Sequence record: OZ035789.1
DNA from: Tequatrovirus BCH953P4
Reading direction: 5' to 3' (one strand)
DNA length: 64,000 bases
Of the stretch, positions 28,258 through 40,521 are shown one piece after another; the stretch's first letter is position 1; each line of letters starts with the position of its first letter. Under the pieces are notes generated by a model. It saw only the letters and a list, made by a program, of their open reading frames with translations, made no database searches and was not told where the DNA came from. Both the position numbers and the translations under genes were made by a program.

Positions 28258-28839
28258 CTAACCGAGCTTTTTAGTTAATTCATTCCAATGTTTTCTACAC
28301 AAAGAAACATAAATTTCATCACCAATACAGATTTGATTACCTTCTTTAACGGGTGTTCCATCTTCCATTAATCGAGCTGTCATAATCGCTTTTTTGCCGC
28401 AATGACAAACTGCCTTCAGTTCAATAAGTTTATCTGCAATTGCCAAAAGTTCTTTAGAACCTTCAAATAATTTTCCGGCGAAATCAGTCCTTAATCCATA
28501 AGCCATAACAGGAACATTATATGTATCAACAATTCGGCTCAATTGATGCACCTGTTCAGTTTTTAAAAACTGGGCTTCATCTACAAATACGCAATGAATA
28601 TCTTTTTGTGCTTCAGCCCATTTATAGAACTCGAAAATATCCATATCATCTGTAATAATATTCGCTTCCTGTTTAATTCCAATGCGAGAAACGACTTCAC
28701 AGACAGAATCACGAGTATCAATAGCAGGCTTAAGAACTAATACACTCATTCCACGTTCTTTATAATTATGTGCAGCAGTCAAAAGAGAAGCAGATTTTCC
28801 AGCATTCATTGCTGCATAAGTAAAAATTAAACTCGCCAT
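28258..28839 (-). CDS. tk: Thymidine kinase, 193 aa
   Basis: P-loop AAMNAGKS near N-terminus and C-terminal Cys cluster typical of type II thymidine kinases; size matches T4 Tk. Confidence 0.9.
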   Translation of the reverse strand: MASLIFTYAAMNAGKSASLLTAAHNYKERGMSVLVLKPAIDTRDSVCEVVSRIGIKQEANIITDDMDIFEFYKWAEAQKDIHCVFVDEAQFLKTEQVHQLSRIVDTYNVPVMAYGLRTDFAGKLFEGSKELLAIADKLIELKAVCHCGKKAIMTARLMEDGTPVKEGNQICIGDEIYVSLCRKHWNELTKKLG

Positions 28840-28848
28840 ATCACCTTC

Positions 28849-29034
28849 TTAAAGCGTATTCACATAAGCTATTAATTCGTTTTCTTTCTTATCAAACCGA
28901 TCAGCAAATTCTTCCTGTTGTTCAGGAGATAGCGGGCCGTATTCATCATAAAAGGTGTTTGCTTCTGTATGCTCATCTAGAAGTTCATGGATAAGCTCAA
29001 ACAATTTATCTTTTTGTTCTTTACTCAGACTCAT
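28849..29034 (-). CDS. Hypothetical acidic protein, 61 aa
   Basis: ORF track; ATG start. Confidence 0.5.
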   Translation of the reverse strand: MSLSKEQKDKLFELIHELLDEHTEANTFYDEYGPLSPEQQEEFADRFDKKENELIAYVNTL

Positions 29035-29204
29035 ATATTAATTTCCAGGAGTTTTAAAATAATTCGCTTTTGCTTAAATATTTCCACAGTTAAATGATCA
29101 GTATCTTTTTGACCAATTCCAATGGCAAAACCTTTATTAACAGCGAGTTCAATTAAATTATCAAGTTCACGTAACACTTCATATTGTAACTCAGAACTAT
29201 TCAT
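29031..29204 (-). CDS. Small protein, 57 aa, not in ORF track
   Basis: Hand translation MNSSELQYEVLRELDNLIELAVNKGF…; ATGA overlaps on both sides. Confidence 0.35.
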   Translation of the reverse strand: MNSSELQYEVLRELDNLIELAVNKGFAIGIGQKDTDHLTVEIFKQKRIILKLLEINI

Positions 29205-29407
29205 TTCGGTTTACCTTCTTTAACGAAATCTGGATAAGGATAAAATCCCGAATAAAATCCTTCACCTTTATGATTGATGCATCCTTTATTAGAACAATAG
29301 CACCAATAATCGAAATCACAAACCATTTCATCGTTGCATAAAGCAAAAACAACCGGCCATTTACACTTTTCACAGTGGGCATTTTTAAGAATACTTGTTT
29401 GGCTCAT
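29201..29407 (-). CDS. Cys-rich small protein, about 68 aa
   Basis: Start refined to internal ATG with ATGA overlap to the upstream stop; nine Cys residues (CEKCK…CNDEMVCDFDYWCYCSNKGC). Confidence 0.45.
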   Translation of the reverse strand: MSQTSILKNAHCEKCKWPVVFALCNDEMVCDFDYWCYCSNKGCINHKGEGFYSGFYPYPDFVKEGKPK

Positions 29408-29616
29408 AACCATGTAACCTTTAAGCAATATTCTTCTACGTGCTGTTTACGACCTTTCTTATCAATAAAGGTATATTCAACGAATGTTCCAATATAGTCT
29501 TTATCTACATCATGCGGACTATTAATTGGACATTTAGTACGGCAAATGCGTTCCCATTGACGAATAATTTCCACTTTGTTTTTAGGATCAAACGGATGCG
29601 GGTAATGTACTTTCAT
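29404..29616 (-). CDS. Hypothetical protein, 70 aa
   Basis: ORF track; ATG start. Confidence 0.5.
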   Translation of the reverse strand: MKVHYPHPFDPKNKVEIIRQWERICRTKCPINSPHDVDKDYIGTFVEYTFIDKKGRKQHVEEYCLKVTWL

Positions 29617-30067
29617 AATCCACCACTATTAAATCAATATCAGGAGTAAACATGTCGATTAATTTAGAAACCTTATCCCAATCGCCGCCAGCAATACCGC
29701 AACCTATGCGTGGAATGTAAATTACTGGTTTAAACAAAAGGGTTTCTGCCTGTAGATTTAATTCTATCATGCAGTTTACTAAAGCACCATAATCAAGATT
29801 AGGACCCGGTTCATATTGCGTATACAGGTTATAGCATATACCAAATCCTGTAGGATTATGTTTAAAAACAATAGACATATCGCCTAATTTATCACGAGAA
29901 CCGTACTCGGTAGTGGTTTTATCTATTTCCAAAATTTTAGGATAGGCTCTTGCTAATTGACCTGCTACGCCAGAGCCCATTGTGTGGAAGCAATTGCACC
30001 CATGCGCAATAATATTACCTTGAAGAAATAGGGCGACAAGATCGCCCTTGATATATTTTACAATCAT
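29588..30067 (-). CDS. Macro-domain-like protein, 159 aa
   Basis: IIAHGCNCFHTMGSGVAGQLARAYP resembles the macrodomain glycine-rich ADP-ribose-binding motif; ATG start. Confidence 0.5.
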   Translation of the reverse strand: MIVKYIKGDLVALFLQGNIIAHGCNCFHTMGSGVAGQLARAYPKILEIDKTTTEYGSRDKLGDMSIVFKHNPTGFGICYNLYTQYEPGPNLDYGALVNCMIELNLQAETLLFKPVIYIPRIGCGIAGGDWDKVSKLIDMFTPDIDLIVVDYESTLPASV

Positions 30068-30405
30068 CTAGTACTCAATCCTCGATTATAAGAATCTACT
30101 AAACGGTCAACCATTGAATGACAAGCGGCTTTATCTTTCTCCTCCGCAACTGAACATTCTAAGGTATTCCACTTTTTAGCATATCGTTTTAACAATGTAT
30201 CATTTTTGTATCTGCTTGATTTATCTCTTTCTCCGTCTTTATATGCATATATTAATTTCTGCGCAAATTCAGCTTGGCATGCTTTATTTTTCCCACAATA
30301 ATCCGCGGCAGTACGGTTTACATACTCTCTAATTTCAGTATATGATGTATCTGCTAACGCAGAAAATGAAATTAATCCTATACATAAAACCAAAATTTTA
30401 GTCAT
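30064..30405 (-). CDS. Secreted small protein, 113 aa, with signal peptide and four Cys
   Basis: N-terminal MTKILVLCIGLISFSALA signal-like segment. Confidence 0.5.
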   Translation of the reverse strand: MTKILVLCIGLISFSALADTSYTEIREYVNRTAADYCGKNKACQAEFAQKLIYAYKDGERDKSSRYKNDTLLKRYAKKWNTLECSVAEEKDKAACHSMVDRLVDSYNRGLSTR

Positions 30406-30943
30406 TTACTATTTCCAAAAGTTTATTATTTTTAAGGTAATTAGCCTTTTCTAGGACTTCAGAAGCATATTTAGAACCAGCTTTAACATTCCATCCCGAA
30501 TTATAAGAGGATATTGCTTTTCTTATATCGCCCTTATGTATATTTAACCAATAAGAAAGTTCAATGTACGCCCAGGAAGCTGAATTGGATCGTTTATTCA
30601 ACATTCTTTTTATTTCAGCATCGGTCATATTATAACCAAGTTCCTTAACTCTTGCTCGCATAGTAGGCAAATAATTTTGGAACATTCCGTAGGCGTGATG
30701 CTTTGGTTTAGATTTTAAATTAACTCCGCCAGAGCTTTCTTGCCATAAAATGGCTGCCATTATATGGCCCAATCCGCTCTTGTGGATGTTTTTGTGTGTT
30801 TTATATTTTCCATCCTTAGAAAATTGTTCCCCGAATTGATATGCGTAGCGCATGTTATCGAGTTGGACATTACTGAAAGTATGCTCGGAGCTATGTGCCA
30901 TCATTGAAATGGCCAATAGACCAGCGAGTAGTGCTTTTCTCAT
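30398..30943 (-). CDS. Secreted lytic transglycosylase-like protein (SLT domain), 181 aa
   Basis: Signal peptide MRKALLAGLLAISMMAHS; SLT-like motifs WQESSG, YGMFQ, SYNSG. Confidence 0.65.
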   Translation of the reverse strand: MRKALLAGLLAISMMAHSSEHTFSNVQLDNMRYAYQFGEQFSKDGKYKTHKNIHKSGLGHIMAAILWQESSGGVNLKSKPKHHAYGMFQNYLPTMRARVKELGYNMTDAEIKRMLNKRSNSASWAYIELSYWLNIHKGDIRKAISSYNSGWNVKAGSKYASEVLEKANYLKNNKLLEIVND

Positions 30944-30950
30944 GCTTACC

Positions 30951-31412
30951 TCATTGAGTTTTAATTACTGCTTTAGAAGCCTTTCCTGGTAAACGACGAC
31001 TGTTGATAATTGCCATCCTACATTGAAGCGACGGGTCTTTGAACTTCGCATTAGGTTTACAAACTGTAAATCCAAGCCAAAGATTTCCATCTGTGATTTC
31101 TAAACGTCCAGGGCGATATTCAACCCCATCAATAAAATCCTCGTCAATGTCAGGACGCGGAGGCATACTCAGGAATTCATTAACTTCTAAAACATGGTCT
31201 TTTATTTTGTGGAATAATTCAAAAACATATGTCTCATCAATCTCCCGTTGAATTGCACGATCAAGAAGATGCTGAGAATATTTTAGATGAAACGATGAGA
31301 CCCCTGCTGCTTTTGATGCCTCACGAATCTCATTGTTAATTTGACGAAACTCCGACTCAAAGTGACGACGAAGCTTATTTCGACGGATAAAAACTTCTGT
31401 GTTGATAGTCAT
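30951..31412 (-). CDS. regB: Site-specific endoribonuclease RegB, 153 aa
   Basis: 153 aa, N-terminus MTINTEVFIRRNKLRRHFESEFRQ matches remembered T4 RegB; GAGGAGAA Shine-Dalgarno. Confidence 0.8.
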   Translation of the reverse strand: MTINTEVFIRRNKLRRHFESEFRQINNEIREASKAAGVSSFHLKYSQHLLDRAIQREIDETYVFELFHKIKDHVLEVNEFLSMPPRPDIDEDFIDGVEYRPGRLEITDGNLWLGFTVCKPNAKFKDPSLQCRMAIINSRRLPGKASKAVIKTQ

Positions 31413-31439: not shown

Positions 31440-31469
31440 ATTATACCACAGTCAAGAGGAAAAGTAAAC
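31440..31469 (-). promoter_or_regulatory. Early promoter for regB: -35 GTTTACT, 17-nt spacer, extended -10 TGgTATAAT
   Basis: Read on the minus strand about 30 nt upstream of the regB ATG. Confidence 0.55.
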
Positions 31470-39162: not shown

Positions 39163-39239
<77 letters not shown>

Positions 39240-39242
39240 TAG

Positions 39243-39908
39243 TTAAAATTTCATTTTTCGACCTTTAAACCATCCTTCTGGAATTGGGTCAGTTTTCTTA
39301 ATACGTTTAGAAACTTTTTCATCTAATGAATGAATCCACATCATACCAAATTGGGAATTCTTTTCACCTTGTTGGTGTTTATTTCTGGCGTGAGATTCTT
39401 TCATTTTATTAATAGTTTCAGGAGTATGGGTCTTACCCAAGAAAGATTTAGTATTTAAAAATTTCTCTCTATACTTAGGATTATCCCAAAACTGTTTAAA
39501 CCTTTCTGAACCCATTTTACGATATTTTTCTTTAAGGTCTGGGTCGTTCTCAAATCTGGTTTTAAAAGCGGCAGCTCCTTTTAAGGAAGCTTCTTTCTTT
39601 TTATCCAAATATTCTTTAGTGTTTAAATGGTCCCAACCACCTTCACCACCTAATTTCAAATTATAAACATCAGAGCGCTTTAAAAACTCTTCAGTCACAA
39701 TATTCTTTTCTGACTCAAACATAGAGGTTTTATCGTCAAAGAACTCTAATATTTCTTTAGAAAAATTTTCTATACCATACTTATCTTGGGCTCTTTTTAA
39801 TAATTTACCAGAACCCATATATCCATCATCTAAATTTTCGGTAGAATGAGCGCCTATATAGATTTTATTATTAATTTTATTTGTTATTTTATAAGTGTAA
39901 TGGAACAT
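39243..39908 (-). CDS. segB: GIY-YIG homing endonuclease SegB, 221 aa
   Basis: Canonical GIY-YIG N-terminus YKITNKINNKIYIGAHS; located inside the tRNA cluster as in T4. Confidence 0.85.
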   Translation of the reverse strand: MFHYTYKITNKINNKIYIGAHSTENLDDGYMGSGKLLKRAQDKYGIENFSKEILEFFDDKTSMFESEKNIVTEEFLKRSDVYNLKLGGEGGWDHLNTKEYLDKKKEASLKGAAAFKTRFENDPDLKEKYRKMGSERFKQFWDNPKYREKFLNTKSFLGKTHTPETINKMKESHARNKHQQGEKNSQFGMMWIHSLDEKVSKRIKKTDPIPEGWFKGRKMKF

Positions 39909-39930
39909 AAATATCTCCTATTTCTAAGAG

Positions 39931-39938
39931 TATTTATG
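39931..39938 (-). promoter_or_regulatory. Near-consensus late promoter (CATAAATA) upstream of segB
   Basis: 7 of 8 match, about 22 nt upstream of the segB ATG. Confidence 0.3.
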
Positions 39939-39949
39939 TTCCCAAAATA

Positions 39950-40021
39950 TGGCCCTGGGTGGAATTGAACCACCATCTGGCGATTATGAGTCGCTTGCTT
40001 GAACCTTCCAGCTACAGGGCC
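39950..40021 (-). tRNA. tRNA-Ile (anticodon CAU, presumably modified to read AUA), CCA not encoded
   Basis: Acceptor GGCCCTG/CAGGGCC, anticodon loop CTCATAA, T-loop TTCAATT. Confidence 0.75.
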
Positions 40022-40027
40022 TTGATA

Positions 40028-40100
40028 TGCTGATTGACGGAATCGAACCGCCGACATCCTCATTACAAGTGAGGTGCTCTACCTACTGAGCTAAATCAGC
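40028..40100 (-). tRNA. tRNA-Thr (anticodon UGU), CCA not encoded
   Basis: Acceptor GCTGATT/AATCAGC, D-arm GCTCAGTAGGTAGAGC, anticodon loop CTTGTAA, T-loop TTCGATT. Confidence 0.8.
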
Positions 40101-40107
40101 GAAATTA

Positions 40108-40194
40108 CGGAGGCGATAGGATTTGAACCTATGAGTCGCCGGAGCGACTGCCGGTTTTCAAGACCGGTGCATTAAACCACTCTGCCACGCCTCC
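40108..40194 (-). tRNA. tRNA-Ser (anticodon UGA), class II long variable arm, CCA not encoded
   Basis: Acceptor GGAGGCG/CGCCTCC, anticodon loop CTTGAAA, long variable arm, T-loop TTCAAAT. Confidence 0.8.
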
Positions 40195-40196
40195 AG

Positions 40197-40270
40197 TCTC
40201 CGCGGCAGGATTTGAACCTGCGACATTCTGCTCCCAAAGCAGACGCTCTACCAAACTGAGCTACACGGAG
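40197..40270 (-). tRNA. tRNA-Pro (anticodon UGG), CCA not encoded
   Basis: Acceptor CTCCGTG/CGCGGAG, D-arm GCTCAGTTTGGTAGAGC, anticodon loop TTTGGGA. Confidence 0.8.
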
Positions 40271-40282
40271 TAAATTAAATTT

Positions 40283-40354
<72 letters not shown>

Positions 40355-40360
40355 AAACTT

Positions 40361-40447
40361 TGGTACGAGAAGTGGGACTCGAACCCACAAGGAAATCATT
40401 CCGCAGCATTTTAAGTGCTGTGCCTTTACCAATTTGACCATTCTCGC
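40361..40447 (-). tRNA. tRNA-Leu (anticodon UAA), class II long variable arm, CCA encoded
   Basis: Acceptor GCGAGAA/TTCTCGT, anticodon loop CTTAAAA, long variable arm, T-arm GTGGG-TTCGAGT-CCCAC, 3' ACCA. Confidence 0.8.
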
Positions 40448-40448
40448 G

Positions 40449-40521
40449 CTGGGAATAAAGGACTCGAACCTTTGCATCTAGCAGTCAAAGTGCTATGCCT
40501 TACCAACTTGGCTAATTCCCA
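40449..40521 (-). tRNA. tRNA-Gln (anticodon UUG), CCA not encoded
   Basis: Acceptor TGGGAAT/ATTCCCA, D-arm GCCAAGTTGGTAAGGC, anticodon loop CTTTGAC, T-loop TTCGAGT. Confidence 0.8.

Follow-up and report, generated by a model that had tools for sequence, protein, structure and literature searches.

The gene tk.4 of the T4-like phage Tequatrovirus BCH953P4 lies on the minus strand of the 64,000-nucleotide stretch of record OZ035789.1 analyzed here (the window) and encodes a protein of 159 amino acids that is, with near certainty, a macrodomain. The protein is a stand-alone, single-domain member of the TARG1/DarG/Poa1p branch of the macrodomain superfamily, and the gene is very confidently taken to be the orthologue of T4 Tk.4, also called AdfM. 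We consider it probable that this allele counters the host defence system DarTG2 by enzymatic de-ADP-ribosylation of DNA, erasing thymine-ADP-ribose marks. The counter-defence idea and the macrodomain identity are both correct and both already published, and the gene has long been annotated as tk.4. New here are the lysine-less site across the Tk.4 family, the lack of detectable DarT within 4 kb of the 80 closest bacterial relatives retrieved, and a divergent allele cassette.

The assignment to the macrodomains is based on profile, profile-profile, and structure searches, which bear out the initial annotation of this open reading frame (ORF) as macro-domain-like. That annotation had proposed a profile search against macrodomain families as its check, and the protein indeed matches the Pfam family Macro (PF01661) over profile positions 2–117 of 118, with an E-value (E) of 5.8e-8 and a score of 33.1 bits against a gathering score of 22. 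When the single sequence is searched against PDB sequences, the best match is BT1257 (E 1.6e-10), and yeast Poa1p (3e-9), Streptomyces coelicolor SCO6735 (8.6e-8), the Mycobacterium tuberculosis DarG macrodomain (3e-5), and human TARG1 (5e-3) are also found. With a profile of 30 family sequences the same macrodomain matches improve to E-values of 3.7e-18 through 5e-11, SCO6735 standing at 1.7e-14. An AlphaFold2 model built from a 61-sequence alignment (predicted local distance difference test score, pLDDT, 93.5; predicted template-modelling score, pTM, 0.88) has the three-layer alpha/beta/alpha macro fold, and its top group in Foldseek is the same as that of the PDB sequence search. It is because of these PDB sequence, profile, and Foldseek matches that the protein is placed in the TARG1/DarG/Poa1p branch. 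Neither its family profile match nor its closest structural similarity is to deacetylases of the MacroD/YmdB type. Two Gly-rich loops are present, MGSGVAG (residues 30–36) and GCGIAGG (residues 122–128), each of which has an aligned counterpart in TARG1, DarG, and Poa1p. The likeness to a glycine-rich ADP-ribose-binding loop noticed earlier in the N-terminal part of the protein holds as well: IIAHGCNCFHTMGSGVAGQLARAYP comprises residues 19–43 and matches the strand bearing the His and Asn, together with the first Gly-rich loop, of DarG, TARG1, and Poa1p.

Orthology to T4 tk.4 is indicated by 57% identity between the two proteins over 155/159 residues (E 3e-69), by a match to PHROG_335 (E 1.2e-71), and by a conserved slot between vs and tk.3, where the flanking genes are 93–100% identical to those of T4 and follow in the same order. 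A macro domain in this gene was reported as early as 2006, when a conserved-domain search with the tk.4 orthologues of six genomes, that of T4 and five T4-like ones, gave matches to the A1pp (macro) domain that were complete in four cases and partial in one (PMC1524935). The orthologue in phage teqskov, 99.6% identical, carries the GenBank annotation 'macro domain protein', and the pipeline annotation of the present gene, 'phosphatase', comes from the label of PHROG_335. In a November 2025 preprint, a T4 transposon library was screened on E. coli expressing DarTG2 and tk.4 was the only significant hit; a clean tk.4 deletion made T4 sensitive to DarTG2, and the gene was renamed adfM, for anti-DarT factor Macrodomain (10.1101/2025.11.20.689424). 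The authors inferred, without biochemistry, that AdfM removes ADP-ribose from DNA (10.1101/2025.11.20.689424). The initial annotation suggested three roles, namely binding of ADP-ribose, reversal of ADP-ribosylation, or the countering of host ADP-ribose-based immunity; the third thus has direct genetic support for the T4 orthologue, from both the sole hit of the screen and the DarTG2 sensitivity of the knockout. Given the 2006 A1pp/macro match, the annotated near-identical genes, and the published counter-defence role of the T4 orthologue, the present analysis adds little as discovery on these two points.

The mechanism that we favour may proceed via the following steps. The two Gly-rich loops (residues 30–36 and 119–130) and the strand with H22 and N25 most likely bind the ADP-ribose moiety. 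The protein would then hydrolyze the bond between ribose C1'' and thymine by which the host toxin DarT2 attaches ADP-ribose to single-stranded phage DNA; the DNA could then be replicated again, and the phage would withstand DarTG2. Such an eraser of DNA ADP-ribose is supported by the homology to DarG, the orthology to T4 tk.4, the invariant residues, and the DarTG2 phenotype of T4. It is also supported by the fact that an unrelated phage macrodomain, PhiKZ gp104, de-ADP-ribosylates DNA, residue N23 of gp104 corresponding to N25 here; in vitro, gp104 stripped an oligonucleotide of the ADP-ribose that DarT2 had added, as a 2026 study in Cell Reports found (PMC13309987). While fold, clade, motifs, orthology, and synteny are established by the present analysis, DNA de-ADP-ribosylation is what we infer for the Tk.4 family, and the requirement under DarTG2 is genetic and concerns the T4 allele.

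The residues that may carry out this reaction are conserved to a high degree. Family invariance is judged here over 61 homologues of 39–97% identity, and the protein of the window has 15 of the 15 family-invariant residues. The conserved set of the Tk.4 family includes H22, N25, D49, N80, Y82, Q84, and W130 as well as both Gly-rich loops (Table 1). H22 aligns to H23 of Poa1p, which is mutated in PDB entry 6lfs, and to the His of the LAHC motif of TARG1, which we take to be H32 in its own numbering. The first Gly-rich loop aligns to MGAGIA of TARG1 and MGKGIA of DarG, with G33 and A35 invariant, and the second aligns to PRIGCGLDRLQW of TARG1 and PPLGVGNGGLDW of DarG, with P119, G122, G124, and W130 invariant. 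N25 aligns to N22 of DarG and N23 of PhiKZ gp104, and an N23A mutant of gp104 has reduced activity (PMC13309987). Laboratory sublines of T4 differ at Tk.4 codon 36 (Ser36Gly), within the first Gly-rich loop (PMC8573959); Gly36 is found in both the protein of the window and the T4 record compared.

A distinctive characteristic of the family is the replacement of the catalytic lysine. The catalytic residues are K80 in DarG and K84 with D125 in TARG1. Three alignment methods place T83-Q84 of the window protein on the T-K motif of these enzymes: a HMMER profile alignment to TARG1, a MAFFT alignment with DarG, TARG1, and gp104, and an hhalign comparison with M. tuberculosis DarG (probability 97.9%, E 4.5e-13). 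The residues N80, Y82, and Q84 are invariant in 61/61 sequences. The motif N-x-Y-T-Q is also present in T4 Tk.4, and NxY[T/S/I]Q occurs in at least 68 of 80 bacterial homologues. According to a review, K80 belongs to a TK-G-G motif that characterizes DarG, a bacterial TARG1 has TK-G-G-D, and the TARG1/ALC1 branch is described as having a 'catalytic duo' that is missing from SCO6735, a protein that removes glutamate-linked ADP-ribose (PMC8120803). With Gln84 at the site of the catalytic Lys found in DarG and TARG1, the chemistry of Tk.4-type proteins cannot follow the K80 mechanism of DarG and has to rely on other conserved residues or a substrate-assisted route. The loss of the lysine is no argument for an inactive protein, because lysine-less relatives such as SCO6735 and Poa1p can be hydrolases; it does mean that the mechanism of DarG, and possibly its substrate, is not simply transferable. 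A compensating lysine in loop 2 was considered and rejected: T4 has K127 where the window protein has G127, and another T4-like sequence (P0015) also has Gly at this position, so that K127 is not conserved even in the T4 class. Among the Poa1p residues probed by the depositors of its structures, H23 corresponds to the invariant H22, S30 to T29 (a conservative difference), and F152 to A126 (not conserved).

Although its fold resembles that of DarG, the family does not belong to the DarG proteins. The window protein scores 28.4 bits against NF048014, the NCBIfam DarG equivalog, the cutoff of which is 250 bits; DarG is at the same time its best NCBIfam match and its only PADLOC match. It has Q84 in place of the T-K motif Lys (K80) by all three alignment methods, and it lacks the C-terminal DarT-binding domain and an adjacent darT, its 159 residues forming one domain and its neighbours being vs and tk.3. 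The cellular relatives give a similar picture. Among species-representative bacterial genomes, the 80 best relatives retrieved are mostly stand-alone ORFs of about 150 amino acids (146 to 327 by longest-ORF call, n=80), and the close ones (34–45% identity) come from marine Rhodobacterales, Desulfobacterales, Verrucomicrobia, Planctomycetota, and others. A tblastn search with the DarT proteins of Pseudomonas aeruginosa, Thermus aquaticus, and M. tuberculosis (E <= 0.1, 4 kb on either side), which is blind to very divergent or more distant DarT, finds DarT at 0 of these 80 loci. The idea that the Tk.4 family is a recently orphaned DarG is therefore disfavoured.

Several of these observations weigh against DNA as the substrate and have to be set against the support listed above. 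The evidence for the action of T4 Tk.4 is genetic, and the present allele is 57% identical to the tested T4/T2 allele, falling to 21–40% in residues 121–159. The closest relatives in sequence and structure, BT1257 and Poa1p, are not DNA enzymes, and there is no DarT within 4 kb of the 80 bacterial loci by the tblastn search with the three queries. Finally, both positions of the TARG1 K84/D125 dyad are altered, Q84, invariant in the family, standing at the position of the lysine of DarG and TARG1 and A126 at that of D125. It is conceivable, and we put it forward tentatively, that Tk.4-type AdfM represents a lysine-less form of the TARG1/DarG branch that cleaves thymine-ADP-ribose via H22, N25, D49, N80, Y82, and Q84, or else defeats DarTG2 by acting on another substrate. 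For specialists there is a caveat in this: T4-type AdfM has been described as DarG-like, yet it is without the lysine of DarG and TARG1 and its cellular relatives show no DarT nearby, and therefore its substrate and mechanism are to be measured rather than assumed.

Among the other explanations, there is a small chance that the protein is a hydrolase for another macromolecular conjugate, either protein mono-ADP-ribose linked to Glu or Asp, the type removed by SCO6735 and TARG1, or RNA carrying ADP-ribose, made by a defence other than DarT2 or in addition to it. Such a substrate would fit the match to SCO6735 in the PDB, as this lysine-less member of the same branch removes the glutamate-linked mark (PMC8120803), and it would fit the wide distribution of the family, which is found in 2774 phage records, well beyond the T4-like phages, and may thus exceed the reach of DarTG2. 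Against it, T-even phages are reported to be still sensitive to the mRNA ADP-ribosyltransferase CmdTAC and apparently are without an effective eraser of that mark (PMC11618068).

It is also unlikely that the protein is a small-molecule enzyme similar to Poa1p, that is, an ADP-ribose-1''-phosphate phosphatase or an O-acetyl-ADP-ribose deacetylase that clears soluble ADP-ribose derivatives arising in the course of infection, so that any DarTG2 phenotype would be indirect. The H-x-C-N-C motif is common to both proteins, including the His that the depositors mutated (H23A). The absence of the TARG1/DarG lysine, the phosphatase label of PHROG_335, and the mostly stand-alone bacterial relatives with no adjoining DarT toxin point in the same direction. 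However, the 'phosphatase' label of macrodomains goes back to historical transfer from A1pp, and an Ala stands here where Poa1p has F152. RNA repair in T4 (Pnk/Rnl1), moreover, is not known to generate 2'-phosphate junctions or Appr>p. The phenotype of the T4 knockout, finally, is specific to DarTG2, with tk.4 as the sole hit of the screen (10.1101/2025.11.20.689424).

An improbable alternative is that the protein does not catalyze at all and acts as a reader or shield, binding ADP-ribosylated DNA or sequestering a molecule derived from ADP-ribose. The catalytic Lys/Asp of TARG1 are missing and all ligand-binding loops are conserved, as this would require, but lysine-less relatives such as SCO6735 (PMC8120803) and Poa1p, the PDB entries of which are deposited as ADP-ribose-1''-phosphate phosphatase, are enzymes. 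In addition, the strict invariance of H22, N25, D49, N80, Y82, and Q84 across the 61 sequences suggests an active site and not just a groove for binding, and it seems implausible that an early protein could shield many DNA lesions stoichiometrically. The first suggestion of the initial annotation, that the protein reverses or edits the ADP-ribosylation of host proteins by the phage's own Alt, ModA, and ModB, is highly improbable: it draws circumstantial support from the ADP-ribosyltransferases that the phage encodes (established for T4), but the family is present in many phages outside the T4-like group, and the link to T-even protein modification finds no support in that Alt and Mod enzymes modify arginine, the known erasers of Arg-ADP-ribose are of the ARH/DraG type, and macrodomains are not known to cleave arginine-linked ADP-ribose, which makes such a reversal chemically unlikely.

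Eraser of DNA marks or not, tk.4 occurs in two forms. A cassette covering most of the gene is divergent from T4 (Table 1): the flanking proteins are 93–100% identical to their T4 counterparts and Tk.4 is 57% identical. The divergence within the protein is uneven, with 90% identity to T4 Tk.4 in residues 21–40, 28% in residues 63–80, and 21% in residues 141–159. The T2 and T4 Tk.4 proteins are identical to each other. At a nucleotide identity of at least 90%, about 281 records have the allele of the window and 225 that of T4; sequenced Tequatrovirus genomes thus carry either allele class with about the same frequency. Genes under pressure from host defences typically look like this, and mosaicism of this kind is also common in T-even phages, so that the pattern is suggestive only. 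If Tk.4-type AdfM is the lysine-less form tentatively put forward above, the two divergent alleles in near-identical Tequatrovirus backbones would reflect an ongoing arms race in specificity. Two alleles of 57% identity in one backbone amount to a natural experiment on specificity.

A second mosaic patch adjoins the tk.4 cassette. The tk.1/tk.2 interval (window 28849–29428) also differs from T4: a 61-amino-acid ORF at 28849–29034 has only 54% identity to its T4 counterpart, and two further ORFs, at 29031–29204 (PHROG_3452) and 29201–29428 (PHROG_2306), have no counterpart in the T4 locus compared. The product of the latter ORF is rich in Cys and shows the pattern CEKC...CYCSNKGC. In T2 and teqskov, ORFs of matching size stand at this position.

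That the window belongs to the genome of a T4-like phage (Tequatrovirus), and that the ORF is its tk.4, follows from the gene order from tk to regB, the identity to Tequatrovirus genomes, and a tRNA cluster typical of T4. As the initial annotation had it, the ORF lies in the interval between tk and regB, both of which flank it, and it is part of a leftward gene string of regB, vs, tk.4, and tk. The 2.5 kb surrounding tk.4 have 98–99% identity to many Tequatrovirus genomes, including ECP2301 and teqskov. The tRNA cluster, on the minus strand at 39163–40521 as in T4, has eight genes (Arg, 'Met' CAT, Thr, Ser, Pro, Gly, Leu, and Gln), of which tRNA-Arg is separated from the others by a gap of about 700 nucleotides. 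The coordinates of the genes and motifs are summarized in Table 1.

Table 1. The tk.4 gene, its motifs, and its neighbours, in positions of the window; identities are to T4.
Feature	Position	Strand	Remarks
tk.4 (adfM-type) coding sequence	29588..30067	-	159 amino acids, ATG-to-stop ORF, single macrodomain
H22-G-C-N25-C26 codons	29990..30004	-	His and Asn family-invariant; line distal-ribose side of pocket
M30-G-S-G-V-A-G36 codons	29960..29980	-	First Gly-rich ADP-ribose-binding loop (predicted); motif of the initial annotation
N80-L-Y-T83-Q84 codons	29816..29830	-	Invariant Gln where DarG has K80 and TARG1 K84
P119-R-I-G-C-G-I-A-G-G-D-W130 codons	29678..29713	-	Second Gly-rich (diphosphate) loop; A126 at TARG1 D125 position
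Divergent allele cassette	~29600..30000		49–72% nucleotide identity, flanks 86–100%; window/T4 alignment in 100-nucleotide bins
Translation start region of tk.4	30064..30083	-	Read directly from sequence
vs (valyl-tRNA synthetase modifier)	30064..30405	-	Upstream synteny anchor; 97% identity to T4 Vs; PHROG_1256
tk.3	29404..29616	-	Downstream synteny anchor; 93% identity to T4 ORF downstream of tk.4; PHROG_2008
tk	28258-28839		100% identity to T4 Tk
vs.1	30398-30943		100% identity to T4 Vs.1
regB	30951-31412		99% identity to T4 RegB

The tk.4 gene is closely packed between its neighbours. A Shine-Dalgarno sequence, GAGGA (30079–30083), lies 11 nucleotides 5' of the tk.4 ATG, and this ATG overlaps the TGA stop of vs as ATGA (30064–30067), an overlap which suggests that vs and tk.4 are probably translationally coupled. 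At the other end, the start of tk.3 precedes the tk.4 stop, giving an overlap of 29 nucleotides with the 3' end of tk.4. A dedicated promoter or terminator of tk.4 was considered and rejected, as sigma-70-like sites are no commoner than in shuffled sequence (13 found versus 14.6 expected). The top sigma-70-like site on the strand of the genes (TTTACT-17-TATAAT, extended TG) is located just upstream of regB (31440–31468), and the regB-vs.1-vs-tk.4 string could be transcribed from it. Codons 7–13 of tk.4 (30030–30048) contain an 8-bp GC-rich hairpin, AGGGCGATCTTGTCGCCCT, with a terminator-like score on both strands. Its stem is kept in T4 and T2, with one loop base differing; it was rejected as regulatory evidence since the sequence around it hardly differs between these phages in any case and the RNA folds with a z-score of only -1.5. 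The neighbouring vs.1 weakly matches PHROG families of endolysins and lytic tail proteins, in line with the old SLT transglycosylase assignment of vs.1; in some GenBank records the gene is wrongly labelled 'RegB domain-containing'.

Among known systems, the DarG macrodomain of DarTG2 (PDB 5m3i, 5m31, 7omu) has K80 of the TK-G-G motif where the window protein has Q84, and it comes with a C-terminal DarT-binding domain and an adjacent darT, neither of which is present here. Human TARG1/OARD1 (PDB 4j5r) likewise differs by its K84/D125 dyad in contrast to Q84/A126. PhiKZ gp104 'AdfM' is, like the T4-type protein, a stand-alone phage macrodomain that counters DarTG2 (PMC13309987). In contrast to the window protein, gp104 is of the true DarG type and keeps the Lys in its FPTKDNW motif; the two are only remotely related, at a BLASTP E of 1e-3 over 23 residues and an hhalign probability of 96.5%. 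The name AdfM therefore covers two different macrodomain lineages, of which only the DarG-like gp104 has been assayed biochemically on DNA. BT1257 (PDB 2afc/2fg1) and Poa1p (6lfq–6lfu) are the closest solved structures and sequences, SCO6735 (5e3b) being a further PDB match. Like the window protein, BT1257 has the Gln (HMMER alignment), Poa1p has the HxCNC motif, and both have the G-x-A-G-x-x-W loop; Poa1p appears to be lysine-less too. The nearest system is Tk.4 (AdfM) of T4 and T2, which shares with the window protein the slot between vs and tk.3, the length class, the PHROG, 57% full-length identity, the motifs HGCNC, MGSGVAG, NLYTQ, and PRIG.GI..G.W, and the Gln in place of the catalytic Lys. 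It differs in having 155 rather than 159 amino acids and in loop 2, which reads GAGIGKGNW in T4 and GCGIAGGDW here, the latter being close to the family consensus.
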